Assembly (NCBI GenBank): GCA_965228735.1
Contig: OZ245838.1
Span: 4,448,001 to 4,512,000, forward strand
DNA: 64,000 bases
Source: Planctomycetota bacterium
GTDB lineage: Bacteria > Planctomycetota > UBA1135 > UBA2386
Direction: 5' to 3'
The notes under the pieces were generated by a model that was given only the letters and a program-made list of their open reading frames with translations, was not told the origin of the DNA and did no database searches. How positions within the stretch are numbered: position 1 is the stretch's first letter; each line of letters begins with the position of its first letter. The translations under genes were made by a program, and so were the position numbers. Shown one piece after another: positions 16,872 through 47,815 of the stretch.

Positions 16872-16948
16872 GCGCCCGTAGCTCAGCTGGATAGAGCGAC
16901 GGCCTCCGGAGCCGTAGGTCAGAGGTTCGAATCCTCTCGGGCGTGCCA
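16872..16948 (+). tRNA. tRNA-Arg (anticodon CCG)
   Basis: GCGCCCG acceptor stem, D-arm TAGCTCAGCTGGATAGAGC, anticodon arm ACGGC-CTCCGGA-GCCGT, T-arm GGTTCGAATCC, encoded CCA. Confidence 0.97.
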
Positions 16949-30033: not shown

Positions 30034-31377
30034 TCAGCGACCGCGGCCGCCCTCACCCTCGTCGGGCAGGTCGAACGTCGCGGGCACGTCCTCGTTGCCC
30101 TGGACCTGCTCGGACCACGGCGCGTTCTGCAGCGCGAGCGGGCCGTACATGATGTCCTTGTCGTCCTCGGCGTCGTGCACCTTGAGCGTCACGAAGTCGC
30201 CGCCGAGCCGACTGCTGATGAGCATCTGCAGGTGCGGGCCGTTGAGCACCGGCACGCCGTCGACCTCGAGGATCACGTCGTTCTTGCCGATGCCGACCTT
30301 CTTCGCGACGCCGCCGTCGGGGGTGGCTTCGATCTTCGCGCCGGGGCCGAGCCACGCCGGCACGAACTGCACGCCGAGCCAGGCGCGCTGCAGCACCTCG
30401 CCCTCCTGCATGCGATCGAGCAGCGGCAGGATGTCGGCGATGGTCGTCGCGAAGCCGATGCCCGAGTCGTACCACTCGACGCCGGCGTTGCGGCCCGACG
30501 GCGACAGCGGCACGGCGATACCGAGCACGTTGCCCGCGACATCGATGACTGGGCCGCCGTAGTTGGCCGGTGACGTGTAGGCGTCGATCTGGATCGCGCG
30601 ACCGAACTGGCGACGCTTCGCGCTCACGATGCCGATGTGCACGGTCGGATCGTCCGCGGCGAACGTGCGCCCGAGCGCGAACGCCCACTGTCCGACCCTG
30701 ACGGTCGCGGGGTCGACGAACGTCGGCACGGGCAAACCCTCCGCCGCGATCTTGACGAGCGCGATGCCGCGGCTCGTGTCCTCACCCGCGCGCTCCGCGT
30801 GGAACGTGCCGTGGCCCGGCACGGTGACGAGGATCGTCGTCGGATCGAGATTGAGCGCGAAGCGCGAGATCAGGATCCAGCCGTCCGACGTGAGCACGAT
30901 GCCCGTCGTCCTGCCCTGCGTCTGCTGAAAGCCCGGCGCCTTGAGCAGCTTGGGCTTCTTCTTGTCCTTGTCCTCGCCCTTCTCGTCCTTCTTGTCGTCC
31001 TTCTCGCCCTCCGCGGGCTTCTGGTCGTCCGGCTTCGGATCATCGGGTTTCGGATCGGCCGGCTTCGGGTCGGCCGGCACGGGCTTCGGCCGCGGCTTGG
31101 GCGGCGCGACGCCATCCATCGGTCCGGCCTTGCCCATGTTGCGCCGCGTGCCGCCGAACGTCTCGACCGTCACGGTGAACGGCGCGGCCCGGTCGAGGGC
31201 GCGCTGCAGCACGGGCTCGAGTCGGATGAACTCTTCGGGGTCGGCGTGCTGCGCGTAGGCCACCGGCGCGGCGAACAGCGCCGCGACGCCGAGCGCCAGC
31301 CCGCGGTGTCCCAACCCGCGGTATCCCAGCCCGCGGTGTCCGAGAATGGGGCGCGAGAGCGCGTCGCTATGGTTCAT
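30034..31377 (-). CDS. Trypsin-like + PDZ (HtrA-like) protein, catalytic residues lost
   Basis: HtrA scaffold (VGQWAFALG, IQID, WLGV), but ILISRF replaces the His motif and PANYGGP replaces GNSGGP. Confidence 0.85.
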   Translation of the reverse strand: MNHSDALSRPILGHRGLGYRGLGHRGLALGVAALFAAPVAYAQHADPEEFIRLEPVLQRALDRAAPFTVTVETFGGTRRNMGKAGPMDGVAPPKPRPKPVPADPKPADPKPDDPKPDDQKPAEGEKDDKKDEKGEDKDKKKPKLLKAPGFQQTQGRTTGIVLTSDGWILISRFALNLDPTTILVTVPGHGTFHAERAGEDTSRGIALVKIAAEGLPVPTFVDPATVRVGQWAFALGRTFAADDPTVHIGIVSAKRRQFGRAIQIDAYTSPANYGGPVIDVAGNVLGIAVPLSPSGRNAGVEWYDSGIGFATTIADILPLLDRMQEGEVLQRAWLGVQFVPAWLGPGAKIEATPDGGVAKKVGIGKNDVILEVDGVPVLNGPHLQMLISSRLGGDFVTLKVHDAEDDKDIMYGPLALQNAPWSEQVQGNEDVPATFDLPDEGEGGRGR

Positions 31378-32450
31378 CTCTGGCCCTCCGGTCGCGCGGC
31401 GAGCTCCATGTCGCCGGTCATGATCTTGGTGCCGCGCTTCCACGTGAGCTTGACCGTGTCGCCGGCCGAGAACTTCTCGAGCACGGTGCGGAACTCCTTG
31501 CAGCTGCGAATGGAGTAGTCGTCGATGCGCACGATCAGGTCGTCTGGCCGCAGCTTGAGCTTGAACGCCGGCGAACCGCGCCGCACGCGATCGACGTAGG
31601 CCGGCGGCGACCGGCGCCCGGCCTTGTCGAACAGGACGACGCCGACCCACGCGGGTTCACCGGTCTTCTCCTCGACCTTGCGCCGCTTGCCGAGGATGTG
31701 GTCCTCGAGGTAGGGCAGCAGGTCGCGCACGGGGATCGCCGCGGAGAGCATCGTGTTGGTCTCCTTGCTGTCGAGCAAGCGCATGTTGAGGCCGATCCAA
31801 CGCCCGTCGAGCGTGAACAGCCCGCCGCCGTAGTGGCCCGGGTTGTTGCACGCGTCGGTCAGGATCAGGTCGCCGTCGTACTTCACGTCGTGGACGCGGT
31901 AGCGCAACGCGGTGTTCGCGCGGCCGTTGATGACGCCGAACGTCGCACTGAGCTTCTCGGAGAACTCCGCGAGCCGGAAGCTGTTGCCGACCGACACGAC
32001 GAACTGGCCGGTGCGGAACCTGCTCTCCTCCTCGGACGGCGGCCACAGCGGCACGAGCTTGCCGGCGACGAGCTGCGGATCGATCTTGAGCAGGCGGATC
32101 TTGAGCTCGGGATCCTCGGGCAGGAGCCGCGCCTGGTGCACCGAACCGTCGTAGAGCACCACGCGCGTGCGGTCCTTCTGCAGCAGGATCTGATCGATCG
32201 TGAGGATGTGTCCTTCGGCGCTCACGAGGATGCCGGTGGCGTAGCTCGTGATGCCGCGGATGCCCGACGCGCCGTGAATCTTCACGAGGCTCGGCATCAC
32301 GCCGTCGATGACCTTCTCGACCGCGGTGCGCGGCCCGCGCTGGGCGAACGAGTAGGCCTTGCCGAAGTCCTCGGTCTGGGCCACAGCATCGATCGACAGC
32401 ACCAGGACAGCGGCGATCGTCGACAGGAGTGTCGCGGTGCGGGCCATCAT
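31374..32450 (-). CDS. Trypsin-like + PDZ (HtrA-like) protein, catalytic residues lost
   Basis: GQFVVSVGN, TDACNNPGHYGGG (Ser to Tyr), ILTIDQ (no His), PDZ LRPDDLIVRID. Confidence 0.85.
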   Translation of the reverse strand: MMARTATLLSTIAAVLVLSIDAVAQTEDFGKAYSFAQRGPRTAVEKVIDGVMPSLVKIHGASGIRGITSYATGILVSAEGHILTIDQILLQKDRTRVVLYDGSVHQARLLPEDPELKIRLLKIDPQLVAGKLVPLWPPSEEESRFRTGQFVVSVGNSFRLAEFSEKLSATFGVINGRANTALRYRVHDVKYDGDLILTDACNNPGHYGGGLFTLDGRWIGLNMRLLDSKETNTMLSAAIPVRDLLPYLEDHILGKRRKVEEKTGEPAWVGVVLFDKAGRRSPPAYVDRVRRGSPAFKLKLRPDDLIVRIDDYSIRSCKEFRTVLEKFSAGDTVKLTWKRGTKIMTGDMELAARPEGQR

Positions 32451-34273
32451 TGCGGCCTCCGGAACGTCGAGTCCTGGACCTCGACTGCGGCGCTGCGCAC
32501 GAGCCGGTAGTCGAACAACGGGGTCTTGCCGTCCTTCACGACGAACAGCTCGGGGGCGCCGTCGCCCGCGACCGGCCCGACGTGGAACTCCATCTGCGCG
32601 CGGTGCAGCGGGTCGCGGAACGTGTATCCGATCGGCTCGCCCGTGATCGTCAGCCACGCCTCGCAGACGCTGCCGGCATCGCCGGGAATGACGAACCGAA
32701 AGCCCGGACGGCCGTGCACGTGCACGCCGCCGATGAGCTCCGCGTTCTGCAGGCGCTCGCGCACCTTCGCGGCCGGCCAGAGGAACGGATTGCTGCGCAG
32801 CTCACGATCGAGCCGCGCCTTCTCCTCGACGCCGAGCTGCCGCACGGTGTCGCCGTCGACCGCGAAGCCCTCGCCGCCTGCGCCGCGCACGAGCTGCAGG
32901 CCGCCGGTCGTGAGGTGCAGCCGTTCGCCGTCGCTCACGAGCTTCGTCGTGACACCTTCCCCGTCGACATACTCGAAGTGGCGTCCGCCCGGATCGTTCG
33001 TCGCTGGCGCCGTGAAGCGCGCCAGCAGCGCTTTCACGGCAAGCCGCCGGTCGATGCGGTTGGCCATGCGCGCGTCCTCGCCGTAGCCGTCCTTGCTCGA
33101 GCCGGTGTCGAGCACGGCCATCTTCACGGTGACGCGACGTTCGTCGCCGAAGCCGCCGGCCTCGAGCGACGGCCGGAAGCCGACCTCGACCCACGTGAAC
33201 GCGGGCAGCACGCCGATCATCGTCGCGAGCTGGTTGGCCGAGCGCACGTCGACGCCGTTGAACCACGTGATCTCGTCGCCGATCGACACGCCGGCCTCGG
33301 CGACGACCGCGTCGCGGTAGATCTGCTGCACGTAGACGCCGCGCTGGCGCTCCTCGCCCGTGCCCGAGTTCATGAACCACGCGCTCATGTCGAGCGTGCC
33401 GTGCTCGGCGTGGCGCCCGGCCATCATGTCGCCGAGGAAGTTCTTGATCTGGTTGCTCGCGATCGCGAACCCAACGCCGACGTTCACGCGGCCGCGGTCG
33501 CCGATCGAGATGCGGCCGTTGATGCCGATCACCTCACCCGCCTCGTTGAACAGCGGTCCGCCCGAGTTGCCCGGGTTGACCGGCGCATCGACCTGGATGC
33601 AGTCGGGGTAGACGAGCATGCGCTGGCCGCCGCCCGACTGGTACCGGTGGGTGCCCGAGACGATCCCGAACGTCACCGTCGGCGTGAAGTCGGTCGCGAG
33701 CAGGAACGGGTTGCCCATCGCGAACACGGTCTCGCCGACGAGCAGCGCGTCGCTGTCGCCGAGGTCGCAGTAGGGCCAGGTCTGACCCTCGTACTTCGGC
33801 ACGAGGCGCAGCACCGCGAGATCGCTGCCCGGGTCGATCCCGAGCACGATGCCCTCGTAGAGCTTGCCGTCGGGCATGCCGACCTTCTTGTTCTTGTAGA
33901 GGTCGGTGCCCTGCGGCCAGTGGTCGAGCCGCCACTCGTCCTTCCATGCTTCGACGAACTCGTGGAACTTCGAGTCGTCGGCGTCCGGGTGCTCCTTGCG
34001 CCACTCGTCGACGAGTTCCTGCGGCGGCTCGGGCGTATCCGGCAGGTCGTAGTCGTCATCGGCCTTGCCGACGACGTGGAAGTTGGTGAGCACGTAGCCG
34101 TGCGGATCGAAGACGACCCCGCTGCCGCCGCCCGGCGCGTCCATCGACATCACGGAGCACACCGCGGCCGCGCAGCGCTCCATGGTCTCGACCCGGCGCT
34201 GCTGGCTCTCGAGCACCGCGGCGAGTTCGGGGTCCTGCATGCCGCACAGGGCGGCTGCCATCGCGAGCATCAT
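32447..34273 (-). CDS. HtrA/DegP-like serine protease, intact triad, PDZ and C-terminal extension
   Basis: LTNFHVV (His), SDLAV (Asp), NPGNSGGP (Ser). Start is uncertain. Confidence 0.9.
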   Translation of the reverse strand: MMLAMAAALCGMQDPELAAVLESQQRRVETMERCAAAVCSVMSMDAPGGGSGVVFDPHGYVLTNFHVVGKADDDYDLPDTPEPPQELVDEWRKEHPDADDSKFHEFVEAWKDEWRLDHWPQGTDLYKNKKVGMPDGKLYEGIVLGIDPGSDLAVLRLVPKYEGQTWPYCDLGDSDALLVGETVFAMGNPFLLATDFTPTVTFGIVSGTHRYQSGGGQRMLVYPDCIQVDAPVNPGNSGGPLFNEAGEVIGINGRISIGDRGRVNVGVGFAIASNQIKNFLGDMMAGRHAEHGTLDMSAWFMNSGTGEERQRGVYVQQIYRDAVVAEAGVSIGDEITWFNGVDVRSANQLATMIGVLPAFTWVEVGFRPSLEAGGFGDERRVTVKMAVLDTGSSKDGYGEDARMANRIDRRLAVKALLARFTAPATNDPGGRHFEYVDGEGVTTKLVSDGERLHLTTGGLQLVRGAGGEGFAVDGDTVRQLGVEEKARLDRELRSNPFLWPAAKVRERLQNAELIGGVHVHGRPGFRFVIPGDAGSVCEAWLTITGEPIGYTFRDPLHRAQMEFHVGPVAGDGAPELFVVKDGKTPLFDYRLVRSAAVEVQDSTFRRPQ

Positions 34274-34337: not shown

Positions 34338-35588
34338 TCAGCGTCGCAGCACGCGGGCCTCGGCGAACGCGCAGTAGTCGCCGAGGTCGTAGTTCTTGCC
34401 GAAGTCGACTTCGAGCGCGAGGGTCTTGGCCTTGCCGAGCTCCAGGCGCACGCGCTCCGGCGGCATGCCGCGCGTGCGGCCGTCGGACTCGTACGCGACC
34501 TTGCCGTCGACGTGCACGCGGAACACGGCGTGCGCCTGCGGCCCGCCGCGGTCGTCGATGCCGATCGTCGCCTCGAAGACGTCGTACTCGCCGCCGAGGT
34601 CGAACGTGAGCCTGGTGTGCGGCACCATGCCGATCCCACGGCCGAACGTCTCGCCCGCGAGCTGGAAACCCGGGCCGGCGACGGACCGATCGACGGTCCA
34701 CGGCCACACCCGATCGAACGCGGGCGTCTGGGCGACGGTGGGCTCGAACTCGGACAGCCAGCGCAGCCGATCGCTCGCGACCGTGAGCCGCGCGAGTCGA
34801 CCGCTCGGGATCGCGACCTCGCAGCCCTCGTCGAGCCGCAGTCGCAGGTTCGCGCCGAGCGCGAGCAACCGGCCTTCGAGGTGATCACCGGTGTCACAAT
34901 CGATGGCGACGCGCGGCGGCGCCTGCTCGTCGGCTGCGAAGCCGGTATTGTTGCCGAAGACGATGCCGAGCACGTCCGCGAGTGGATACTCGATCTCCCG
35001 ATCGCGCAGCCGGAACAGCACCTTGTCGGCCTGCATGCCGGCGACGGTCACCTGGAAGCGGCGCTGCTCGCCGTCGCGTTGGACGTAGAGGAAGTCGCGG
35101 TTCTCCGGCGCGTCGTCGAGGTCGTTGCTGAACGACGCCGGTGCAGCGCGGCCCTCGCCGGCGTGCCGTACGGCGCGCAGCGTGCTGAGCGGCAGCTCGA
35201 GCGTGACCCCGACCGAGAGCTCGACGCCGAGGCGCGCGGGCTGCCCGCCGCCGGCCGCGATGCCGTGGATCTTCCGGGCGGCGAACTGCTGGCCCGAACG
35301 CAGCCACACCCGATGCGGCGCCGCCGTGTTCGCGGGCTTGACCGCATCCGGGGTGAAGCTCGTGACCTCGTCGAGCGTCAGCGTGACCGTTTCCCCCGCG
35401 GTCTGGACGGTCACGTTGCCGTCCCCGTTCGCGGTGAGCGTTCCCGTGAGCTTGCGGCCCTCGATCGTCTCGACGAGACCGACGGGGCCACCGGCGGGCG
35501 GCGCGGCCTCCTGGCTTCGCACCGCCCCCGCGACTACGGCGACGGCAGCGAGCGCCGCGACGGTGAACGCAGAACGGTCCGCGCTCAC
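34338..35588 (-). CDS. Exported protein with C-terminal NPCBM/NEW2 domain
   Basis: Signal peptide; GIGMVP..LTFDL, FEATIGIDD, L.LEVDFG, FAEARV. Confidence 0.85.
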   Translation of the reverse strand: MSADRSAFTVAALAAVAVVAGAVRSQEAAPPAGGPVGLVETIEGRKLTGTLTANGDGNVTVQTAGETVTLTLDEVTSFTPDAVKPANTAAPHRVWLRSGQQFAARKIHGIAAGGGQPARLGVELSVGVTLELPLSTLRAVRHAGEGRAAPASFSNDLDDAPENRDFLYVQRDGEQRRFQVTVAGMQADKVLFRLRDREIEYPLADVLGIVFGNNTGFAADEQAPPRVAIDCDTGDHLEGRLLALGANLRLRLDEGCEVAIPSGRLARLTVASDRLRWLSEFEPTVAQTPAFDRVWPWTVDRSVAGPGFQLAGETFGRGIGMVPHTRLTFDLGGEYDVFEATIGIDDRGGPQAHAVFRVHVDGKVAYESDGRTRGMPPERVRLELGKAKTLALEVDFGKNYDLGDYCAFAEARVLRR

Positions 35589-36631
35589 CGGCTGCCCGTG
35601 CCCGTGCCGAGCTTCTTGTAGTACTGCTCGAGCATCTTGCGGTACTGCGGCGGCAGCGAGTTCTGGATCTCGGCCTCGATCTTCTCGCGGTCGCGATCCT
35701 TCATGTCGCCCCACCGGTCGGCGAGCGTCGGCTTGGTCTTGAGTTCACCGACCGAACCGTCGCCCTCGGGGAGGCCGCTGCTGTTGGCCGGGTTCTGCGA
35801 CGGGCCGTTGCCCGACGGCGGACCGCTCGACTGCTTCTCCATCTCCTCGTACATCTCGATGAGCTGCTGCAGCTCCTCGAGGTACTTCTCCTGCTCGATC
35901 TGCACCGGCTCGTGCGTGCGCTTCTTCTTCAGATCGCGCCGCGTCTTCTTCATCCGGTCCGCGAGGTTGTGGAGCTGGCTCTCCTGCTGGCGCTCGAGCT
36001 CGAGCACCTGCTGGTGGGCCGCCGAACGGAAGCGTTCGCTGGCCTCGGGGAACCACTGCAAGAACGCCTTGAAGCGCGGGATCGCGAGGTCCGGGTACGG
36101 GATCTCGGCGAGCGACTGCGCGTAGTAGAACGCCGCTTCGGCATCGAGCGGCGAGTTGTTGATGTCCTGGCGGATGTATTCGCCGAGCACCTCGACGGTG
36201 CGCTCGGGGTCATCGCTCTCGAGGAAGACCTCGGCCAGGTGGTAGCGCACGTGCGCGCGCAGCAGGCCCTGGTCCGGCTTGGCGCCGGCCAACACCTGCG
36301 TCAGCGCGAGTGCGGCCTTCGGATCGGCGTCCTCGTGCAGCTTGACCGCCGCATCGAAGGCCGGCACCGCCGCGCGCACGAGCATGTCGGCGGCGGTCGT
36401 GAGACCGTATTCGTCGACATTGGTGCGGAACGTCTCGATCTGCTGCGCCGTCGCGCCGAGCGCGGTCGCGGCAGTCTCGAACTTCTCCTGGTCGAACGGC
36501 CGGAACGGGTTCTCCGCGATGGGCTGACCGGAGCCGCCACCCTGACCGCTGCCTTCTTGGGCGAACGCCAGGCCCGCGCTCAGCGTGAGCGCGAGCAGAC
36601 CGGTGGCGCACGTCCTCACGAGGAGGCTCAC
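35585..36631 (-). CDS. Exported TPR-like helical protein
   Basis: Signal peptide ending AFA, TPR-like helices, C-terminal WGDM...LPPQYRKMLEQYY. Confidence 0.75.
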   Translation of the reverse strand: MSLLVRTCATGLLALTLSAGLAFAQEGSGQGGGSGQPIAENPFRPFDQEKFETAATALGATAQQIETFRTNVDEYGLTTAADMLVRAAVPAFDAAVKLHEDADPKAALALTQVLAGAKPDQGLLRAHVRYHLAEVFLESDDPERTVEVLGEYIRQDINNSPLDAEAAFYYAQSLAEIPYPDLAIPRFKAFLQWFPEASERFRSAAHQQVLELERQQESQLHNLADRMKKTRRDLKKKRTHEPVQIEQEKYLEELQQLIEMYEEMEKQSSGPPSGNGPSQNPANSSGLPEGDGSVGELKTKPTLADRWGDMKDRDREKIEAEIQNSLPPQYRKMLEQYYKKLGTGTGSR

Positions 36632-38625
36632 TTGCCCTCCTCGGTGTGGTTCTCCTTGTTGAGCTTGACCGCGAGCTTGCGCATCAGCTGCTGGACGCGA
36701 CCCTGCTTGCCGGACAGCAGTCCGGCCTCGGCGTCGCCTTCGGCAGTGTGCTTGGCTTCATCGGCTTTCTCTTCGTAAGCCTTGGTCGCCTTGTTCACGC
36801 GTTCCTGGAGGTACTTCAGCATCTTGAGCTCTGCCGACACGGGCACGAGCGGCGGTTCCCCGCCTCAACCAGACCCCGTTCAACCACCGCCTTCTTTGAT
36901 CTCGATGGTCTTGCGGAGCGCGTTGATCAGGAGCTCGAGGGTGTCCTCGACCTCCTTCTGCTTGAGCTGGACGATCGTGCCGGTCTCGTAGGCGCGGCAA
37001 CGCGACGCGACGTCGTGCAGCTGCTCCTTGAGGTCCATGACGATCTCGGGGAACACGGCCGTGCTGCCCTCTTCTTCGAGCAGCTTGAGCGCGTCGCTGG
37101 CCTCGACCTCGAGGTCACCCTCGCCGGTCGCGACGAGCATGATCTTGTCCTTGAGCGCGGCCGGCAGCGACCCGTCGGCCGTGAGGACCGTCTCGCGCTG
37201 ACCGTGCAGCGTCGTCGTCGCGATCGTCAGCTCGCGCTGGATCGCGAGCATCGCCGTGAAGCGTTCTTCGAGCGCGCGCAGCACCTCGTCCTTGAGCTGC
37301 TGGCGCAGCTGGGCGAGGGCCTCTTCGAGCTCCTTGCTCGCGGCCTCGAGGTTCTCCTTGGCGTCCTGCTGGTCCTGCTTGGCCGGCTTGTACTCCTTGA
37401 GCGTGCCGGCGGCCGAGCGCTGCTGCGGCACGGCCTGCTGCACGCGCTTCTTGCCGGGCGTCGGCTGACCTTCGTTGTTCTCGTCGCCCTTCTCCGCGTC
37501 TTCCATCTTCTGGGAGAGCGTGTCCGTGGCGTGTTTGGTGTTCTCCTGGCGTTTGGCCAGTTCGTCGAACGGCAGCTTGTCGAGCTCGCGGCGAGCCTCG
37601 TCGATCATGTCGTCGAGTTCGGCGACGGTCTTCTTCAGGTTCTCGATCGCGTGGTCCTGATCCTTGAGCGCCGGCTCCGGCTGGTTGTCGCCGAGCTTCT
37701 CGCACGCCTGCCCCATCGCGCCCGCGGCCTTGCCGGCGCTCCCAGCACTGCCCTTCGACGGCTTGCCGGGTTGCGACTCGCTCGGTTCGCCAGGCTTGCT
37801 CTCGCTCGGCTCGCCGGGCTCGCTCGGCTCACCCGGCTTGCCGGGCTCACCGGGCTTCCCGGACTCACCAGCCTTCGGCTCGCCCGCCTTCGGGTCGCCG
37901 GCCTTGGCCTCGGCGTCGAGTTCGGCCTTGTCGGCCTCGAGCTCCGCGAGATCCTCGGCGAGCTTCTCGGTGTCTTCCTGCAGGTCCTTCTCCTGCTTGC
38001 CGAGCTCGTCGGTCTGGCCTGCCGCGGCCTCCATGCCGAGCTCGTTCGTCGCCGCGCGCAGCTCCTGCTGACGACGCAGCAGCTCGGCCGCCTCGGCGCG
38101 CTTCCGCTCGGCTTCCTTGATGAGCTCCTGCAGCGCTTCGACGCGCGCGGAGTCTTCCTTCTCCTCGCCCTGTTCCTGCGCCAGACGATCGACCTCCTTC
38201 TTGAAGTTCTCGAGCTGCGCGATGCGCTCGAGCAGCTTCCGCAGGTCGTCGTTGCGGTTCTGCAGGATCTCGTAGAGCTTGGTGAGCTTCTCGCGCACCT
38301 GGCCGATCTCGACGAGCGCGTCGTCCCAGCGCTCCTGCCCGAGCAGCGTGCGCACGCGCGCCATCTGCTCGTGGATCTTGGCCTCCTGCACGTACTGGCT
38401 GCCGGCCCGCAGGATGCTCGCGTCGGTCGCCGCGTTGGCGTCGGCGTCGTCCTTCTGCAGGACGAGCATCAGCTTCTGCATGCGCTCGGTGAGATCGCGG
38501 AACTTGGTCCGCGCCATCTCCTGCTTCGTGATCGCCGACGGATCCTGCGCCACGAGGGGCGGGCCGATCGGCACCATCGCCACGAACAAGAGTGCCGCTA
38601 GGGCGGCGATTCCGCGTTGCATCAT
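36628..38625 (-). CDS. Exported coiled-coil protein (DUF4175-like) with two in-frame UGA codons; candidate selenoprotein or readthrough product
   Basis: ORFs 36880-38625 and 36628-36846 share a frame and are separated only by TGA (36880-82), T-G-S-G, TGA (36865-67), G-G-E-P-P-L. The joined product is 665 aa. Confidence 0.7.
36828..36879 (-). promoter_or_regulatory. SECIS-like stem-loops immediately 3' of the in-frame UGAs
   Basis: ACGGG...GGCGG-GGAA-CCGCC...CCCGU after UGA1; GCUC-G-UGCC-CGUGUC-GGCA-GAGC after UGA2. Confidence 0.5.
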
Positions 38626-38633
38626 GGGGTCAC

Positions 38634-40886
38634 CTACTTGCCATTCTTCTTCGGCTGTTTGTCGCCCTTGTCCGGACCACCGAAGAACTCGTTCTCGGAC
38701 GCCTGAGCCTTGCCCTCGACGTCCTGAATCACGGATTCCTCTATCTTTATCACGGTTCGGAGTTCCTCCAGCAGTGCCGCGAGGGTCTCCGCCTGTTCCA
38801 TTTCTGCGAACACGGCCAACAGGCGCCGCTCGATATCGATGTAACCGTCTATCGCCGCTTTGCTTACCTCGGCTTCGCGAGTCCGTGCAAAAGTATCCAC
38901 CTGGCGCCCCGTCGTCGGGAAAGCCTCCTTGGCAACGGCCGTCAGGGGAGCCGGGATCACCCGTTCCATCTGCCGCACCTTCCCGGACTCGATCAGGCGG
39001 TTGTTCTCGTACTCCCAGAGGATGCGCTGGTAGGACTCGGCGATGAAACTCGTCCGGCGGCCGAGCGAGACCTGCTGCCGCGCCAGGGTGCGCAGCCGCC
39101 CCATCACGCGGCGCTCGCGGTCGCCGACCTTGCCCTGGTTCACGACCGCGCTGAGCTCCCTGAGCTCGAGCAGGCCGGCCTGATGTTCGGTGATGATGCG
39201 GCCGAGCTCCTGACGCTGCTCGATCTGGCGGCGCCGCAGGTCCTCGAGCAGGCGCTCGCGGGTGACGACGCGGAACGTGAGCGTCTCGCAGTAGCCGGTG
39301 TGCGGTTCACCCGGCCCGAAGTTGTCGCGAGCGCGGTAGCGCATCGACAGCGTCATGCCGGGACGGATGCGGTTGTCCGCGTGGTTCTGCGCCGGCTGCG
39401 GATTCCATTGCCGCAGATCGACCGTCGCCTCGGTCTCGTAGCGCAGCGTGTTGGTCGTCATCGCCTCGACGTAGGACGCGGCGGCGTTCTCGAACGGTGC
39501 TGGCGGCACCACGGTGTCGCTGCCCGAGTCCTGCGGCGCGTCCTCGGCGATGCGCAGCTCGACGCCGATCTCACGCAGGCCGAAGTCGTCCTTCACCTTG
39601 AGCGTGCCCGGGATGCGCGCGTGGCTCGCGATCAACGAACCGATGCCACGCAGGCGCAGGTCGACCTTGGGCGCGCGGTCGTCGCCGACGCGCAGCAGGA
39701 GCTTGGGTGGCGCGCTCGCGCCGAGTTTGTCCGTGTCGATCACGTCGATGACGAGCAGCCCCGAACTCTCGGGCACGAGCTCGCCGGAAAAGGACCGGCC
39801 GTCGCCGGCACGTGTAAGCGGATACTTGCGGTCGTCGCCGAACAGCAGGAACGCCTCGTCGATCGGCTTGTGGGAAGTGCCCGCGACGAGCAGCTTGGAG
39901 CCGCTCGGCAGCCGCAGGTCGCCCTCGGTCGGCGGCACGACGTCGTTCTCCCGTTCCATGTACTCGGGATAGACGATCTCGAGCTGCAGGTCGCCGATGC
40001 GCGGCCGTTCGACGATCGTCACCGCGAGCTCGACCGGCAGCGCGTCGCCGCCCTCGGCCCGCAGGACGACGTCCTCGAGCACGGTGTCGAGCGTGAGCGT
40101 GAACTCGCCGTCGCCCGTGGCGCTCATCGGTTCGCTACCGACGTCACCGCCCGCGAACTCGTAGTCGAGGAACACCTGCTCCGGCATCTCGCCGCTCGCG
40201 ACGATGCGCACGGTGAGCGCGTCACCCTGCGGCAGGCGCACGGCGCCCTCGGCGTCCGCGAACGACAGCGTCGTGTAGCGCGGCCAGTCGACGCTGGAGA
40301 GCAGCAGGTTGCGCTGCGCCCAGATGCCCAGCGTCGAGCCGCTGATCGCGCCCCAGACGATGAAGAACAGCAGCGTGAAGACGATCGCGGCGAAGAACTT
40401 GCCGACGCGGCCGCCGTTGATCGCGTTGCCGAACGGGATCGAGTCGAGTCGCGCCGACGTGCTGCGCACCACCTCCGACATCATGTCCGTCGATTCGATG
40501 CTCGCGGCAGCCGCTCCGACGCCGCTGCCGACGAGCCGTTGGTCGAACTGCAGCGAGCTGATGAGCGATTGTTTGATGCCGGGCGCGCGGCGTTCGACCG
40601 CGAGCGCCATCTCCTCGTCGTCGAGCGTCACCGCCATCGGCCGCACGAACCGATGGCGCACCATCCGGAACACGACGACCGCGAAGCTCAGCAGCAGCAC
40701 CGCGCGGAACGCGAACTCGAGCCGCAGGAAGCGATCCGTGATCAGCGTCGGCATCGCGTAGGCCACGAGCAGCAGACCGAACGCGCCGAGCGTCTCGATC
40801 CAGATGCCACGGCGCGCGCGCGCCCGCAGTCCGTCGAACTTGGTCCTGGCCTGGCCGAGGATCACGCCGTCTGCAGTCGATGTCAT
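38634..40886 (-). CDS. Membrane-anchored DUF4175-like protein
   Basis: Three TM segments, AVERR.P..KQSLISSLQF, P..V.L...DDFGL, C-terminal coiled coil. Confidence 0.75.
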   Translation of the reverse strand: MTSTADGVILGQARTKFDGLRARARRGIWIETLGAFGLLLVAYAMPTLITDRFLRLEFAFRAVLLLSFAVVVFRMVRHRFVRPMAVTLDDEEMALAVERRAPGIKQSLISSLQFDQRLVGSGVGAAAASIESTDMMSEVVRSTSARLDSIPFGNAINGGRVGKFFAAIVFTLLFFIVWGAISGSTLGIWAQRNLLLSSVDWPRYTTLSFADAEGAVRLPQGDALTVRIVASGEMPEQVFLDYEFAGGDVGSEPMSATGDGEFTLTLDTVLEDVVLRAEGGDALPVELAVTIVERPRIGDLQLEIVYPEYMERENDVVPPTEGDLRLPSGSKLLVAGTSHKPIDEAFLLFGDDRKYPLTRAGDGRSFSGELVPESSGLLVIDVIDTDKLGASAPPKLLLRVGDDRAPKVDLRLRGIGSLIASHARIPGTLKVKDDFGLREIGVELRIAEDAPQDSGSDTVVPPAPFENAAASYVEAMTTNTLRYETEATVDLRQWNPQPAQNHADNRIRPGMTLSMRYRARDNFGPGEPHTGYCETLTFRVVTRERLLEDLRRRQIEQRQELGRIITEHQAGLLELRELSAVVNQGKVGDRERRVMGRLRTLARQQVSLGRRTSFIAESYQRILWEYENNRLIESGKVRQMERVIPAPLTAVAKEAFPTTGRQVDTFARTREAEVSKAAIDGYIDIERRLLAVFAEMEQAETLAALLEELRTVIKIEESVIQDVEGKAQASENEFFGGPDKGDKQPKKNGK

Positions 40887-43384
40887 AGCAGGTTGAACCT
40901 CTTGCGCAGCGTCCACTCGATCGCGAGCACGATGATCAGGAACATGATCGTCGCCCAGCCGTCCCACAGCGGGTGCGGCGTGCGGAACGTGTCCGTGGCC
41001 GAACGCGACGGGATCTCGTCGAGCGCCGTCAGCAGTTCGCCCGGCGTGTTGAGCAGGCGTCCGCCCGTCGCCGCGGCGATCGCGGCGAGCTCGGAGCGAT
41101 CCATCGGACCGTCACGCTCGATCTGCGCGGCGACGACCTGGAACGTGAGCTCGACGTTCTTGCCCATCTTGCGCGCCGGTCGCACGCGATACGTGCCGAG
41201 CTGCGTCGGGCGGAACTGCAGCTCGTAGCTGCCGGGCACGCTCTCGATCGGGACGAGCTGCACGTTCTCGGTCTCGCCGCCCTCGCGTTCGACGAGGATC
41301 TCGAACGCGTCCGCGAGCCACGGCTGCAGCGCCTCGTCCTTGACGTCCGCCGTGACGAGCACGGCCTCGCCGAGGTCGACCTTCTCCGCGTTGGCCGTGA
41401 GCCGCAGTCGGCTGTTACCCGCGAAGATGCGGCCTTCGAACAGGTACCGGATGCCGTTGATCCAGAACTTCACGTAGGCGTCCATGAAGATGGAACGCCA
41501 GCGATAGGTCTCGTCCGTGCCGAGCCAGAACACGCGGCCGGCGCCGACGTTCTGCATCGCGAACATCGTCATGCCGTGGCCGTCCCGCCGGAACTTGGGA
41601 TCGGGGTTGGTGCTCTCGACGACGCTCGTCGCCGCGGCCTTGAGGCGCTTGACCGGGAACCAGAAGTGGAAGCCCGGCAGGCGCGACCACACGATGCGGC
41701 GCTTGCTCTTGTCGTCCTCGATGCGCGACACCTTCGCCGCGACGCCGTCCGCGCCGTCCGCGGCGAGCTCGTAGGGCCACGGCCGCGGGAACGCGATGCC
41801 GAAGTTGACCATCTTGCGCTGCGCGAAGTCGATGTCGGGGATGACCGGCAGCAGGTCCGCGAGCGGTGAGGTCTTGGCCTCGGGCACGAGTGCTGCGAGC
41901 GTGAACTTCTCACCGCACACCCACCACAGACCGCACCCGCCCTCGACGACGTGCGCCGCGAGGTTGTCGCAGAACGTCGACGTGAGCGTCTCCGGGTTGG
42001 GGTCGATCATCACGACGACGTCGTAGGGATCGAACTCGGACCGCGCCTCCGGCAGCTTGTCGATACGCACGCCGTCGTTGCCGTCCTGCGGGAACTTCGG
42101 ATCGGCGTTCTGCACCCAGCACGTGACGTCGATCGTCTTGTCGCGGACGAGCAGGTTGCGCAGCATCTGATACTCGAAGATCGACGCGCCGGCGACGAGC
42201 AGCACGCGCGCGCGCTCGTCGAGCACCTCGACCATCTGCACCTTGCTGTGGCGTTCGGGTGCCGGCGGTTCGCCATCCGGCGGCTCGACGACGCTGCGGT
42301 AGAGGAAACGTCCCGCGGTGTCCGACGTGAGCTCGCGCCACTCGACCGTCACCTCGGTCTGGCTGCCGCCGATCTCGACCTGTTGCGTCGCGACGGTGGA
42401 TTCGCTGCCCTTCTCGTCCGTGCGCAGCAGCCGCACCGTGACGGTCGTCGGATCGTAGCCCTGCGAGCTCACGTTGGAGCTCATCTGGAACTTGTCCTTC
42501 TGGAACACCTTCTCGGGCGCTTCGAATCGCGACAGCTCGACGGTCTGCGTCTCGGACGGATCCCCGATGCCGAGCACGAACGTGTGCGGGATCTTGCGCT
42601 GGTTGAGCAGACGCGCGACCTCGGCGCCCTGCGGCCCGGCGTTGCGGCGGCCGTCGCTGACGATCACGACCGCGGCGATCTCGGAGCTGCGGCTGCGATC
42701 GAGCGCGGTCCGCAGACTGCCGCCGAGGTTGCTGAAACGACCGTCGGCCGCGAGCTTGCTCAGGTCGAGCCGCGGTGCGGGCGGCTCGTCCGGCACGATC
42801 GGCTGTCCGTTCTCGTCGAGCGGGTTCGGCGGCGGCGGCAGCAGCGGCAGGTTCTCGAGCGCGCCGGCGAACGAGTAGAGCTGCGGCACGTTCTTGCGGC
42901 CGAGCTTTTCGACGACGGCGCCGTCCTCGTGGCCGAGCAGCGCCTTCACGAGATCGATGCGGCGCTGGCCGACCGGGTCGTCGACGCCGATCTGGCGCCA
43001 GCCGTTGCTGAGCTCCTGGACCTCGGCGCGGCGGAACGCGTCGACCTGCGTCATCGACTGCGACGAGTCGACGAGCAGGATCGTGTGGCCCGGTCGCGTC
43101 TCGCGCTTCACGGTCACGAGGTTGGGCTCGAGCAGCACGAGGATCGCGACGACGACCGCGAGGATGCGGAAGAACGCGAGGGTCGCGCGCTGCATGCCCG
43201 TGAGGTTCTTGCCGTCGCGGCGATACATCCAGCCGATCGCGATGACCGCGAGCAGCATGCCGAGCAGCACGAGCATGCCGAGGCCGCCCGTCGGGAACGC
43301 GGCGAATTCGAACTGCAGTTCGTCCCCCGGTTCGGGGGTCACGCCTTTCCAGGCGGCGAGCCAACGCAGGAAGTCGTCCATCAT
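40883..43384 (-). CDS. Membrane vWA-domain protein with glutamine-amidotransferase-like domain
   Basis: MIDAS DSSQS, VIVSDG, GAGRVFWLGTDETYRWR, C-terminal TM IEWTLRKR. Confidence 0.85.
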   Translation of the reverse strand: MMDDFLRWLAAWKGVTPEPGDELQFEFAAFPTGGLGMLVLLGMLLAVIAIGWMYRRDGKNLTGMQRATLAFFRILAVVVAILVLLEPNLVTVKRETRPGHTILLVDSSQSMTQVDAFRRAEVQELSNGWRQIGVDDPVGQRRIDLVKALLGHEDGAVVEKLGRKNVPQLYSFAGALENLPLLPPPPNPLDENGQPIVPDEPPAPRLDLSKLAADGRFSNLGGSLRTALDRSRSSEIAAVVIVSDGRRNAGPQGAEVARLLNQRKIPHTFVLGIGDPSETQTVELSRFEAPEKVFQKDKFQMSSNVSSQGYDPTTVTVRLLRTDEKGSESTVATQQVEIGGSQTEVTVEWRELTSDTAGRFLYRSVVEPPDGEPPAPERHSKVQMVEVLDERARVLLVAGASIFEYQMLRNLLVRDKTIDVTCWVQNADPKFPQDGNDGVRIDKLPEARSEFDPYDVVVMIDPNPETLTSTFCDNLAAHVVEGGCGLWWVCGEKFTLAALVPEAKTSPLADLLPVIPDIDFAQRKMVNFGIAFPRPWPYELAADGADGVAAKVSRIEDDKSKRRIVWSRLPGFHFWFPVKRLKAAATSVVESTNPDPKFRRDGHGMTMFAMQNVGAGRVFWLGTDETYRWRSIFMDAYVKFWINGIRYLFEGRIFAGNSRLRLTANAEKVDLGEAVLVTADVKDEALQPWLADAFEILVEREGGETENVQLVPIESVPGSYELQFRPTQLGTYRVRPARKMGKNVELTFQVVAAQIERDGPMDRSELAAIAAATGGRLLNTPGELLTALDEIPSRSATDTFRTPHPLWDGWATIMFLIIVLAIEWTLRKRFNLL

Positions 43385-43391
43385 GTCCTCC

Positions 43392-45698
43392 TCAGCGACG
43401 GCCGAATCGCATGGCCAGGAAAGACTCGGCCAGGAGGCCGAGCACGAGAGCGGCGGCGAGGATCTTCCAGATCTCACCTTCGCCCGAACCACCACCGAGA
43501 CCGCCATCGGCCCCGACGAACGTCACGCGATCGTGCAGCTCCTGCGGGAAGAGCCGGGTGAACGCCTTCTTCTCGAACTTCTGCAGCCGGCTCTCCGTGG
43601 CCGGCGCGTTGCGCGCGAGGATGCGCGTCTCGGGCGCGCCGTCGTGCCGCGAGAACTCGACCGCGTAGGCGCCGAGCTCGCGCAGATCGCGCATCGGCAC
43701 CACGAGCTCCCACGCGCGCTGGTCGACCGTCGGGTCGGCACTGCCGCCCGGAACGTTGCCGCCCGGAACACTGCCGCCCTGGCTCTCGCCGCCCTGGTTC
43801 TCGCCGTTACCGGCATCGCCACCGGGCGTCTCCGGCTCGGGCTCGGTCGCGGTGAACGTGCGCTCCTCTCCGTCACCGCCGAGCGCGCGCAGCGTCACGT
43901 CGGGGCGGTAGACGCCCGGGTCGAGCTCGGTGCGGTAGGTGCCGTTCGGGTCGAGGTTGTTGCCGCTGAGGTCGGGCCGGCGCGCGGACGACTTGTGCAG
44001 CTCCATCACGGCCGGCACGAAGAGTTCGGTCACCGGCAGGTTCGACCAGTGCTTGTCCGCCGTGATGGCGAACGCCGAGACCTGACCGCCGCCGCTGCCG
44101 AACGGCCGCGTCACGATCAGCGGCGGCCCCTCGGCGTCGCGGATGCGCGCGACGATCGCCGCGTCGTGGTCGAACTCGTGATCGAAGGCGATCCAGCGCT
44201 TCACGAGCACGACGTTGTTCATCAGCAGCTCGAACACCTCGCCGAGCCCGCCGCACATCGGATGGTCCTTCTTCGTGAGCACCGCGGGTTCGGGCCGGTC
44301 CGGGTCGCCGTCGACCTCGAGCAGCGGCAGCGGCAAGAGTCCCTTGCCGTCCTTCCACAGCAGGTCGTTGTAGCGCTGCACGTCGATCAGCGCGCCGCAG
44401 AACACGCCGAGGCCGCCGCCGTTCCCGACGTAGGCCTCGAGCCGCTCTGCGAACTCCTCGGTCGGCGCCTGCACGTTGCAGAGCCAGATGAAGTCGAACG
44501 GTTCGAGGTCGAGCTCACCGAGACCGGTGTCGGACACGACCTGCAGTTCGAAGCCGAACCGCTGATCGCCCGTCGGATCGTACGCGGACACGACGAAGAA
44601 CGTCTCGCCCAGGTCCTCGTCCGGGTCGCCGTCGACGAGCAGTACGCGACTCTTCTCCTTCACCTCGATCGCGAACGCGCGCGCGTCGTCGAGCGGGAAG
44701 TGCTCCGTCGTCTCGAGCCTGGCCTCGACGCGGTGGAAGCCCGCGCTGCCGAACGTGTGCGACGCCGGCAACGCCACCTTCTCGCCCGGCGCGAGCTGCG
44801 GCACGTCGAGGCTCACGCTGCTCTGACCGTTGACCTGGAACGCGATCGACGTCGGCATCGTCGCGTCGAGCCCGTGGTTCTTCACGTCGATCGCGAGCGC
44901 GACCGGCACGTTGGCCACCGCGAGTCGGTCGACGAGGCGGATGTCCGTCACGCCGAGGTTGGGATGCTGGCCGCCAACGTCGAGCACGGTGAGGTGCTCG
45001 GTCTCGGGGTTCATCGCGGCGATCGCCGTAACGAGTGCGGGCTGCGCCTGGTCGTCCGGCGTCGCGAAGTCGTACTGCCGTTGATCGCAGACGAGGTAGT
45101 ACTCGGTCCGCCCGGCTTCCTCGACCGTGCTCGCGCGCTGCTGCGCGTTGCTGAACGCCTTGCCGAGGTCGGGCGACGTCTGGCTCACGAGCCACTCCTT
45201 GAGGCCGCTGCCGATGCGCCGCGCGACGTCGGGGCCGACCTGGACCTTCCACAGGTCGGGCTCGGTGCTCTTCGTGCTGCGGACGATCGAGATGAGATCG
45301 CCCGACCGCGTCTTGCTCAGGTCGTCGGCGAGCGCGCGGACGCGATCCTGCGCGCGTTCGAACAGGCTCGCGCTGCCGCTGATCTGGGTCATCGACGCGC
45401 TGTCGTCGAGCACGACGACGTGGTGCGTGATCGACCCGATGAGCCCGCCGCCGCCGAGCTGCGGCCGCGCCACGAGGAACCCGAGCAGCAGCACCGCGAG
45501 CACGCGGAGCAACAAAACGAGCCACTGCTCCATGCGCAGGCGCTTGCGGTTGCGCTTCATCGCCTTGAGCAGGAACTCCATCGCCGCCCACTGCACCTTC
45601 TTGAAGCGCCGGCGGTTGAGGATGTGGATGATGATCGGCACCGCCGCGAGCGGCAGCGCCCAGAGCAGCATCGGATTGAGGAAAGCGAGTGCGAGCAT
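43392..45698 (-). CDS. BatA-domain / vWA membrane protein
   Basis: FLNP...PIIIHILNRRRFKKVQWAAMEFL (BatA), MIDAS DDSAS, C-terminal TM AESFLA. Confidence 0.88.
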   Translation of the reverse strand: MLALAFLNPMLLWALPLAAVPIIIHILNRRRFKKVQWAAMEFLLKAMKRNRKRLRMEQWLVLLLRVLAVLLLGFLVARPQLGGGGLIGSITHHVVVLDDSASMTQISGSASLFERAQDRVRALADDLSKTRSGDLISIVRSTKSTEPDLWKVQVGPDVARRIGSGLKEWLVSQTSPDLGKAFSNAQQRASTVEEAGRTEYYLVCDQRQYDFATPDDQAQPALVTAIAAMNPETEHLTVLDVGGQHPNLGVTDIRLVDRLAVANVPVALAIDVKNHGLDATMPTSIAFQVNGQSSVSLDVPQLAPGEKVALPASHTFGSAGFHRVEARLETTEHFPLDDARAFAIEVKEKSRVLLVDGDPDEDLGETFFVVSAYDPTGDQRFGFELQVVSDTGLGELDLEPFDFIWLCNVQAPTEEFAERLEAYVGNGGGLGVFCGALIDVQRYNDLLWKDGKGLLPLPLLEVDGDPDRPEPAVLTKKDHPMCGGLGEVFELLMNNVVLVKRWIAFDHEFDHDAAIVARIRDAEGPPLIVTRPFGSGGGQVSAFAITADKHWSNLPVTELFVPAVMELHKSSARRPDLSGNNLDPNGTYRTELDPGVYRPDVTLRALGGDGEERTFTATEPEPETPGGDAGNGENQGGESQGGSVPGGNVPGGSADPTVDQRAWELVVPMRDLRELGAYAVEFSRHDGAPETRILARNAPATESRLQKFEKKAFTRLFPQELHDRVTFVGADGGLGGGSGEGEIWKILAAALVLGLLAESFLAMRFGRR

Positions 45699-45708
45699 CA
45701 GCGAGGGG

Positions 45709-46752
45709 TCAGCGCTGGTAGATGGGGACCAAGGCGTATGGCAGCTGCAGGATCAGCAGAGCGATCGCGGTGCCGTAGACCGGCCCGACGCTGTCACCGA
45801 GCCAGCTGCCGTCCGGACGCTGCTGCTCGCGCAGCCACGACGCCATCGCGATGAAGTAGTCGGACCACTGCGAGCCGCCGCGCTGGTAGCGCGCCTGGCT
45901 CCAGTAGAGGTGGGCGTAGTAGTGGTGACCCGTGGTGTCGGTGCGCACGGCGAGCGCGCGGTCGCAGTAGCGGAACGCGGCGTCGACGAACTCCGCGTCG
46001 TCGTAGATGCCGGCGTTGTAGAACACCGCCACGCCGGCCGCGGTGATCGCCGGCCGACTGCTCGGACCGCCGCGCAGCTTGTAGCGCACGCCGCCGTCCT
46101 CGTTCTGGCAGCGGCGGACGTAGCTCACGGCGCGGTCGACGATGCGACGGTCGACGACGATGCCGGCCATGCGCGCCGCGCGCAGCGCCTGCAGCTGCGT
46201 GATCGTGACGCTGCCCTCGTCGTCGTTCTGATCCGGCCGATAGATCCACCCGCCGGCGGTCGACTGCGCTGCGGCCGTGACCGCGACGGCGCGATCGAGC
46301 GCGCGCTTGAGCCGCCGCTGCTGGTGCAGGTCCTCTTCCATCCCGTAGACCGACGCGAGCAGCAGCGTCGCGAAGCCGTGGCCGAACATCGGCACCGGGT
46401 CGTCCGGGGTGTGGATCAGACCGTTCTCACGTTCGGCACAGCCCAGGAGGAACTCGACGGCGCTGCGCACCTGCCGCCAGAAGCGACCGCGCGTCGGCGT
46501 CGAGCCGGACGCGACGAACGCCATCGCCGCGAGCGAGGTCATCGCGACCGGGTAGCCGCCCGCGTCGGCGCCGTCCGATCGCCAGCTGCCGTCCGCCGTC
46601 TGCGATCGCGCGAGCCACTCGAGCCCGTCGTCGATCGCGCGCGCCGACGCGGCCGTGACACCGGCCGGCAGACCCTGCGCCCTCGCGGGCACGGCCGTGC
46701 CCACGAACGCGAACGCCGCGACAGCGGCGCCGATGCCCAGTCGGAAACTCAC
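45709..46752 (-). CDS. Exported prenyltransferase/squalene-cyclase repeat (alpha/alpha barrel) protein
   Basis: Signal peptide; QW-like repeats WLARSQTADGSW, QSTAGGW, QNEDGG, QQRPDGSW; C-terminal PIYQR. Confidence 0.88.
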   Translation of the reverse strand: MSFRLGIGAAVAAFAFVGTAVPARAQGLPAGVTAASARAIDDGLEWLARSQTADGSWRSDGADAGGYPVAMTSLAAMAFVASGSTPTRGRFWRQVRSAVEFLLGCAERENGLIHTPDDPVPMFGHGFATLLLASVYGMEEDLHQQRRLKRALDRAVAVTAAAQSTAGGWIYRPDQNDDEGSVTITQLQALRAARMAGIVVDRRIVDRAVSYVRRCQNEDGGVRYKLRGGPSSRPAITAAGVAVFYNAGIYDDAEFVDAAFRYCDRALAVRTDTTGHHYYAHLYWSQARYQRGGSQWSDYFIAMASWLREQQRPDGSWLGDSVGPVYGTAIALLILQLPYALVPIYQR

Positions 46753-46762
46753 CGTCGGAACC

Positions 46763-47815
46763 TCACCGCTGGAAGATCGGGCAGAGGGCGTAGGGCAGCT
46801 GCAGCAGCGTCAGCGCGATCGCGGTGCCGTAGACCGTGCCGACCCCGTCGCCGTCCCAGCTGCCGTCCTTCTTCTGCTGCTTGAGCAGCCAACGCGCCTT
46901 CTTGTCGTAGTAGTCCCGCCAGTCCGAGCCGCCGCGCTGGTAGAGCGCCTGCGACCAGTAGAGGTGCGTGTAGTAGTGGTGACCGGTGTTGTCGACCGTC
47001 ACCGAGATGTGCTTCTTGCAGTAGTCGTAGGCCTTCTCGGCGAACGGCTGGTCGTCGTAGATGCCCGCGTTGTAGAGCACCGCGACGCCGGCCGCCGTGA
47101 TCGCCGGGCGACTGCCGCCGCCGGAGTTGAGGCTGTAGCGGATGCCGCCGTCGCTCGTCTGGCAGCGCTTGATGTAGTTGACCGCGCGGTCGATCGTCTT
47201 CTTGTCGACGACGATGCCCGACATGCGGCACGCGCGCAGCGCCTGCACCTGCGTGACCGTGACGCTGCCCTCGTCGCTGTTGCTGTCGGGAGTGTAGATC
47301 CAGCCGCCGGCCGAACTCTGCGCGGCGGCGATCAGACCGACCGCCTTGTCGAGCACGCGCTTGAGCCGACGCTGCTTCGTCAGATCCTCCTCCATGCCAT
47401 AGACCGACGCGAGGTAGAGCGTCGCGAAGCCGTGGCCGTACATGCTGCGCCCTTCCTCGGCCGGCACGGAGACGAGCCCCGTTCGCGGGTCCGAGTTGTC
47501 GATGAGGAACTGCACGGACTCGCGCACTTCGCGCCAGTGGCGGCCGCGCGTCGGCGTCGAGCCCGACGCGAGCAACGCCATGCCGGCGAGGCCGGTCATC
47601 GCCGCGGGGTACGAGCCGTAGCCGCCGCTGTTGCGCCATGCGCCATCAGGGCCCTGGTTGCGCGCCAGCCAACCGAGACCGCGCTGGATCGAATCGGCGA
47701 TGGCCTTGTCGACGCCGGGCGGGAAGGCGTAGTCCTGAGCGGAGAGAGCGCCCGCGCACCCGCTGATGGCAGCGGTGAACGAGAACGCGAGCGTGAGTGA
47801 GTTGCGCAGGATCAT
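46763..47815 (-). CDS. Exported prenyltransferase/squalene-cyclase repeat protein (paralogue)
   Basis: WLARNQGPDGAW, MYGHGFATLYLA, QQKKDGSW, C-terminal PIFQR. Confidence 0.88.
   Translation of the reverse strand: MILRNSLTLAFSFTAAISGCAGALSAQDYAFPPGVDKAIADSIQRGLGWLARNQGPDGAWRNSGGYGSYPAAMTGLAGMALLASGSTPTRGRHWREVRESVQFLIDNSDPRTGLVSVPAEEGRSMYGHGFATLYLASVYGMEEDLTKQRRLKRVLDKAVGLIAAAQSSAGGWIYTPDSNSDEGSVTVTQVQALRACRMSGIVVDKKTIDRAVNYIKRCQTSDGGIRYSLNSGGGSRPAITAAGVAVLYNAGIYDDQPFAEKAYDYCKKHISVTVDNTGHHYYTHLYWSQALYQRGGSDWRDYYDKKARWLLKQQKKDGSWDGDGVGTVYGTAIALTLLQLPYALCPIFQR

Follow-up and report, generated by a model that had tools for sequence, protein, structure and literature searches.

Two in-frame UGA codons in a planctomycete envelope-operon gene very likely encode selenocysteine in an uncatalogued protein family

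How is a gene read when UGA interrupts it twice within a few codons and its frame is otherwise intact? The question is raised by a minus-strand gene in a 64,000-nucleotide (nt) stretch of a Planctomycetota genome (GenBank assembly GCA_965228735.1, contig OZ245838.1, positions 4,448,001 to 4,512,000; hereafter the window, to which positions refer unless marked otherwise), whose 665 codons include TGA at codons 582 and 587 (Table 1). A preliminary description of the window had proposed either selenocysteine (Sec) at both codons or regulated readthrough, and its account of the letters is accurate: both TGAs stand in the minus-strand context IKEGGG(stop)TGSG(stop)GGEPPLVPVSAELKM, and translation beyond the second remains open up to a final TGA that overlaps the GTG of the downstream 348-residue gene. 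The gene is, from the comparisons set out below, very likely a dual-selenocysteine member of an uncatalogued selenoprotein family. Taken as a whole, the reading that we favor, and consider highly probable, is that of one 665-codon gene in which both UGAs are very likely decoded as Sec via SelB and tRNA-Sec, to yield a predicted exported protein, helical throughout, whose flexible Gly loop bears the two selenols and would likely be the redox or cross-linking arm of a Bat-like envelope complex.

The argument that decay or sequencing error would be an unlikely source of two such stops has proved sound. No alternative letter occurs at either TGA in contigs (rather than raw reads) from four of four runs of four studies, three of these contigs spanning the whole window and possibly being near-identical to the source DNA, and the fourth covering 36765-36915. 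Orthologues were collected by matching the C-terminal 223 residues, which are found in 88 of the 91 genomes of the bacterial family; one of these (G094) holds a paralogue only and was dropped to leave 87, and the relatives that have names are metagenome-assembled genomes of uncultured Planctomycetota. Every one of the 67 loop stops across the 53 TGA-bearing orthologues is TGA, and the confinement of in-frame stops to a 12-codon loop (67 in 1044 loop codons, none in the 18,140 remaining codons of the 87 orthologues) is not a chance placement. A pseudogene, an error in sequencing, or a pair of genes with translation restarting past the stops might be invoked because in-frame GTG and ATG codons occur 21-69 nt behind UGA2; against this, the candidate starts have no clear ribosome-binding site before them, as had been described for the distal fragment, and the Cys orthologues are fused and full length. 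This explanation is refuted by conservation, and we give it practically no credence.

The loop itself exists in several states. One TGA is carried by 39 orthologues (19 genera), two by 14 (3 genera), Cys only by 26 (17 genera) and neither by 8. Aligning the linker, as the preliminary description had suggested, finds conserved TGA together with Cys at both positions, with homologue P0040 placing Cys exactly at U582 (HCxxC) and L297, with a U-x4-C loop, at the second. Across the set the motifs include CU, HUxxC, CxHU, UxxC, U-x3-U, U-x4-U, U-x5-U, CxC, CxxC and CxxxC, and in many orthologues His directly precedes Sec (GHU, CGHU). Among database homologues, 92 of 111 parsed full-length proteins have Cys in the loop, and all eight of the short records listed (P0114-P0121) stop at the loop; we take these to be gene-caller products mis-annotated as truncated. 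Four residues behind the UGAs (E157, Q165, T172 and A210 of the 223-residue domain) are invariant in 48 sequences. These observations bear on programmed leaky readthrough or a selenium-sensing stop, either of which would yield working 581- and 665-residue isoforms. Termination competes with Sec insertion at any UGA, and truncated forms are indeed present in databases, yet such records are products of gene calling, Cys and thiol-free orthologues are all full length, TAA or TAG never terminates one of them at the loop, and the hairpins discussed below track the position of the UGA. Full-length Cys orthologues and invariant residues beyond the UGAs thus leave the two-isoform alternative weak, and we judge it very improbable. 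Genome-wide reassignment of TGA is ruled out, as TGA is the terminal stop in 73 of the 84 orthologue regions examined (3 of them truncated at a contig edge).

On a FastTree phylogeny from which the loop was excluded (rooted at the midpoint, a few nodes being weak), the Sec, Cys and thiol-free forms are interleaved, as judged without a formal test, and two-Sec forms fall in three places. A phylum-wide sample of 301 genomes has the 223-residue domain in 194, and distant loci (17, plus 27 further, of which one is a repeat and two are unparsed) have a Q/G/S-rich loop with no stop and with Cys in 3. Among the loci compared, Sec use seems restricted to this bacterial family. A distant homologue outside the family, L241 (G341), has CxxC at the end of the equivalent loop.

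The source genome, a single contig of 7.19 Mb and 93% complete, holds all four genes of the Sec machinery for which a search had been proposed: tRNA-Sec is found both by ARAGORN and by RF01852 (76.6 bits), and selA (454 bits), selB (337 bits, model positions 2-578) and selD (367 bits) are over cut-off, the selD gene carrying an in-frame TGA of its own. A codon-model screen of the genome returned 136 raw readthrough candidates, of which 31 were picked by eye as Sec sites; 20 of the Sec candidates were scanned against NCBIfam, and 11 match redox or metal-binding families, 3 of them over the model cut-off. The machinery together with these candidates marks the organism as a heavy Sec user. The screen overlooked the two-UGA gene under study and is therefore incomplete.

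Bacterial selenocysteine insertion sequence (SECIS) elements follow a consensus (Zhang and Gladyshev, as given in Fig. 2 of PMC13188914) of a 3-9 nt loop with G then G/U in its first two places, 16-37 nt from the UGA. The preliminary description had drawn a hairpin behind each UGA, and both fold; its lower stem for the first, ACGGG/CCCGU, does not stand as well, because it pairs with the loop of hairpin 2, making the two mutually exclusive, and it starts at +1 behind UGA1, where the RNA would be kept open by the decoding ribosome. Folding energy by itself is unremarkable (z between -0.7 and -2.0 in the four longer stretches and -3.2 in the 14-nt hairpin). The consensus was also written as a fixed rule, applied with our own script rather than bSECISearch, that requires the loop pattern, a stem of at least 5 bp and folding from +10. 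The rule is satisfied at both UGAs of this gene and behind 65 of 67 orthologue UGAs against 5 of 48 Cys codons of UGA-free orthologues; when these peptides are recoded synonymously, the expected numbers are 28.1 of 67 and 8.6 of 48. Applied unchanged to held-out metagenome loci (31 new loop sequences from 80 loci, with 42 duplicates and 7 lacking the motif set aside), it holds for 21 of the 22 UGAs and 2 of the 17 Cys. In single-UGA genes the rare codons GGT and CCA form a 6-bp stem with the loop GGUCA or GGUCC, and pairing of this hairpin-1 stem is intact in 25 of 25 sequences and includes a U-A/C-G exchange, a count that kinship inflates. The codons of hairpin 2 are fixed in distal-UGA genes (the rare Ala codon GCA in 11 of 16, against 0 of 33 UGA-free genes).

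Several results weigh against decoding as Sec. Of the covariation that the preliminary description had proposed to examine, hairpin 2 shows none, being nearly invariant. A per-sequence stem-energy test gives no separation (p<=0.05 in 5 of 67 UGA and 9 of 81 Cys cases), and among 34 UGA-free genes, 19 have a hairpin-2 region with a folding energy of -8 kcal/mol or better. The rule has a background rate of 22-24% in the genome and recovers just 20 of the 31 other Sec candidates, while an Rfam search gave no SECIS match and one chance match at E 4. Every one of the 53 TGA-carrying genomes has selA, selB or tRNA-Sec, but the machinery is near-universal (selA in 85 and selB in 83 of 91 genomes of the family, and present in 10 of 10 tested outside genomes), and a Sec-less control group sought in the family and in those 10 genomes was not found; as nearly all non-carriers also have the machinery, this co-occurrence does not discriminate. 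Related orthologues are, moreover, non-independent data points, and the spacing of loop thiols varies (CxC, CxxC, CxxxC, CU, UxxC, U-x3-U, U-x4-U, U-x5-U), which argues against a fixed catalytic site. With these points counted, we hold with high confidence, on comparative evidence, that Sec is inserted SelB-dependently at both UGA codons, SelB and tRNA-Sec decoding UGA1 and UGA2 within a single 665-residue product.

Hairpin 1 would be the SECIS for UGA1 or else a spacer stem, and hairpin 2 the SECIS for UGA2, possibly serving both. In this gene and L291 both hairpins satisfy the rule, so that the idea of one hairpin behind each UGA stands here, but the two are exceptions among 17 double-UGA genes. 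In the other 15, most of which come from one genus, the distal hairpin alone satisfies the rule, at 34-38 nt from the first UGA, as it does in six single-UGA genes (G002, G028, G029, G069, L294, L309); the distal SECIS may thus serve both UGAs. The proximal stem is retained there, with both-side changes in the U-x3-U group at 2 of 5 pairs in a comparison where 2 of 10 distinct rows are in a different register, and its loops vary freely with no early G (AAGAA, CAAGC, AAAGC, UCACC, GCAA). We somewhat favor an arrangement in which hairpin 2 is the SECIS for UGA2 and is able to act on UGA1 as well. Hairpin 1 would then be a SECIS in this gene but no more than a spacer stem in most double-UGA relatives, where the proximal stem would fold out and shorten the path from the distal SECIS to the first UGA. 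A bacterial precedent for one SECIS serving two UGAs was not found in the literature searched by title and abstract. It is possible, if somewhat doubtful, that each UGA needs its own SECIS in all double-UGA genes and that the SelB of this lineage tolerates A-rich loops. The two rule-satisfying hairpins of this gene and L291, the compensatory changes in the hairpin-1 stem of the U-x3-U group and the lack of a G-loop in 11 of the 31 other Sec candidates of the genome are consistent with such a requirement, whereas the distal hairpin as the sole one to satisfy the rule in 15 of 17 double-UGA and six single-UGA genes, and the freely varying hairpin-1 loops in those genes, argue against it.

What could two selenols do in such a protein? 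The 665-residue product is predicted to be exported, with a signal-peptide-like stretch at about residues 1-26 that ends, by eye, in an invariant Gln, followed by a Pro/Gly/Glu/Ser-rich linker at about 243-293 and a conserved C-terminal helical domain at 443-665. An AlphaFold2 model of the last 223 residues (48 sequences) has seven helices with a predicted local distance difference test score (pLDDT) of 90 and a predicted template-modeling score of 0.84. The Sec loop is the long non-helical segment and holds the sole run under pLDDT 50; it is of low complexity and modeled as disordered. The two long helices behind it (pLDDT about 90) hold the four invariant residues. The model is all helix and does not contain a thioredoxin fold with UxxC or CxxU at a helix start. 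Fold searches return general four-helix bundles (best Z 12.4, root-mean-square deviation 2.9 over 140 residues, a de novo design matching residues 1-142 only), which yield no function, and a PDB sequence search gave nothing below E 0.24. No Pfam family matches the protein, nor does any NCBIfam 20.0 model over cut-off (best E 0.0009, an SMC-like model, 18 of 300 bits). DUF4175 (PF13779) has no match here; it matches 2 of 16 orthologues at 22.4 and 21.6 bits (E 4e-5 and 6e-5; cut-off 27.3) and occurs in 13% of the members of the nearest Atlas cluster. A second, mid-protein Cys, located where the middle linker ends (near residue 293, a Ser in this protein), accompanies loop thiols. It is present in 53 of 61 proteins whose loop has two Cys, in 8 of 21 whose loop has one and in 0 of 13 whose loop has none; among UGA-bearing loci it occurs in 9 of 19 that have a single UGA and in 0 of 12 that have two, kin among these not being independent.

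Within the favored reading, the two selenols on a flexible exported Gly loop would likely serve in redox chemistry or cross-linking. In distant homologues this loop is a Q/G-rich linker; Cys, and later Sec, may have arisen in it within this family. Reversible links (Se-Se, Se-S or S-S), formed within the loop in two-Sec forms and with the mid-linker Cys or another subunit in Cys forms, could tune or protect an envelope complex. We regard this history and the reversible links, as read from sequence comparison, as an evenly balanced proposition, and the thiol role would be accessory given the 8 of 87 orthologues that have no thiol there. The main functional rival accepts Sec and has the loop bind a soft metal (Cu, Zn, Hg) through His, Cys and Sec without redox cycling. 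The His before Sec and the CU dyads of orthologues would suit a metal site, as would the three or four Cys reached once the middle Cys or CxC is counted, and CU and UxxU motifs occur in metal-binding selenoproteins listed in Table 1 of PMC13188914. However, the ligands differ widely in spacing and number, some orthologues have a single Sec or a single Cys, the model shows the loop as disordered, and 8 of 87 orthologues have no ligand there; we consider metal binding unlikely. A more specific proposal, which we advance tentatively, is that this undescribed family uses one SECIS for two UGAs 12-18 nt apart, the first being reached from 37-38 nt via a codon-encoded spacer hairpin, and that the redox activity of a Bat-type envelope complex resides in the diselenide loop.

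The putative selenoprotein gene is the seventh of twelve in a tightly packed minus-strand operon (50583-30034; Table 1), and its earlier placement in a BatA/vWA operon is upheld by the match to the BatA N-terminal domain, the vWA match being weak. The core gene order is kept in 55 loci as far as contigs extend, and the other operon genes in these loci contain no in-frame TGA, listed stops being in wrong frames or outside the true genes. None of the seven MoxR genes of the genome lies within the window, and the selenoprotein operon has no DUF58 gene. In an identity look-up of five window proteins, the 348-residue neighbor alone has a database record, without a protein name. A complete, paralogous MoxR-headed Bat-like operon lies elsewhere in the genome (C1:334115-312675(-), L346-L347), with a second gene that is DUF58-like by sequence, and it encodes a 990-residue paralogue of the selenoprotein with a Q-rich, Cys-free loop. 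The second and third trypsin-PDZ genes of the selenoprotein operon look like pseudo-proteases, the catalytic motifs being kept by the first alone. The window also holds two tandem genes for Uma2 (putative restriction endonuclease) at 27475-28817 (+) and a tRNA-Arg(CCG) gene at about 16872-16948 (+; genome 4464872-4464948).

Table 1. Features of the two-UGA gene and its operon in the window
Feature	Position	Strand	Basis or remark
665-codon putative selenoprotein gene	36628..38625	minus	Single frame, translated from sequence
UGA1, codon 582, putative Sec (U582)	36880..36882	minus	TGA in linker of 53/87 orthologues, Cys in UGA-free ones
UGA2, codon 587, putative Sec (U587)	36865..36867	minus	Spacing shared with G001 and L291; L297 has Cys there
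Hairpin 1, 5 bp GGCGG/CCGCC, loop GGAA, 20 nt behind UGA1	36851..36864	minus	Folding
Hairpin 2, loop CGUGUC at 23 nt from UGA2 and 38 nt from UGA1; 8 bp, one bulge	36828..36850	minus	Folding
PQQ-like beta-propeller with TPR, first operon gene	47827..50583	minus	
Squalene-hopene-cyclase/prenyltransferase-like alpha-toroid protein 1	46763..47815	minus	
Alpha-toroid protein 2	45709..46752	minus	63% identical to protein 1
BatA N-terminal double-transmembrane, vWA, CARDB protein	43392..45698	minus	PF07584 68.8 bits, TIGR02226 79 bits
833-aa protein	40883..43384	minus	Weak BatD match only; paralogue in MoxR operon, C1:329399-326979
About 745-aa protein	38634..40865	minus	No family match
348-aa protein	35585..36631	minus	No family match
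NPCBM-domain protein	34338..35522	minus	
Three trypsin-PDZ (HtrA-like) genes in a row	30034..34273	minus	GNSGG and TNFH motifs in first only

The wider selenoproteome appears large for a planctomycete, with at least about 31 further Sec candidates that are mostly thioredoxin-like, peroxiredoxin, deiodinase-like, MsrA-like, ArsC-like and HMA-like. Three FG-GAP repeat proteins have an in-frame TGA followed by Cys (U-C-x4-PQFVD; C1:3065085(+), 5872224(-) and 406817(-); L201, L202) and share a hairpin with the loop AGUUC at 19 nt, and their family is absent from Table 1 of PMC13188914. Other candidates carry HPLGCT-U, DEFC-U, DGFA-U and VPGMW-U motifs (C1:4855623(-), 3484699(+), 7087946(-), 2546238(+), 5497385(+), 3235945(+); L210, L217, L199, L215), and the four of these that were scanned gave no NCBIfam model match and one weak Thioredoxin_7 match. 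Two more genes have two UGAs each: one for a tandem HMA-like protein with no family match (C1:2561-1929(-), L213) and one for a VPGUxxT type 2 protein over cut-off (C1:6694873-6693398(-), L212).

Our literature searches returned no description of the selenoprotein family reported here; it is absent from the 119 families in Table 1 of a 2026 review (PMC13188914) and from the available portions of PMC13326102 (without its Table S2), PMC12013277, PMC4807772 (without its S9 Table) and bioRxiv 2022.07.06.499078. It would add a selenoprotein family that has no redox fold and has been entered in databases as truncated. Since Sec, Cys and thiol-free states alternate in one bacterial family, it offers a natural series on why Sec replaces Cys, and the same series suits asking how closely spaced UGAs are decoded in bacteria, to which this gene contributes the two-Sec form and the UGA-decoding question. 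It would also place a selenol or thiol on a subunit of a Bat-like operon. Bat proteins have been proposed to reduce periplasmic proteins or to export reducing power, for which Leptospira mutants gave no support, and the available part of that report mentions no Sec subunit in Bat systems (PMC3557215); if our tentative proposal is true, the diselenide loop would be the redox element missing from this old idea.

Set beside known systems, the gene resembles bacterial selenoproteins with a SECIS inside the reading frame in its UGA with a Cys counterpart, its G(G/U) early in a short loop and its accompanying selA, selB, selC and selD, but differs in that Sec sits at shifting positions in a disordered, low-complexity loop of a helical bundle, and in most double-UGA genes the hairpin loop lies as far as 38 nt from the first UGA, across an intervening stem, in contrast to the 16-37 nt of the bacterial consensus. 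The UxxxxU motif was thought to belong to an unfamiliar family, and no family match was found, but the spacing is already listed in Table 1 of PMC13188914 for TsoB (NF045694), an unrelated rhodanese/DsbD fusion. The UxxU metal-binding protein NF041115 and the Prx-like UxxU proteins likewise have two Sec a few codons apart; the 665-residue protein has no sequence match to the two-Sec models of NCBIfam, and its model contains no thioredoxin, rhodanese or HMA fold. Among DUF4175-like coiled-coil proteins, to which the orthologue matches are weak and below cut-off, no Sec form is described in the literature searched. In organization the operon resembles the Bat and MoxR-DUF58-vWA operons, with which it shares a BatA N-terminal domain with vWA, TPR, exported partners and tight packing, and from which it departs in having neither MoxR nor DUF58 and in adding alpha-toroid, NPCBM and HtrA-like genes.

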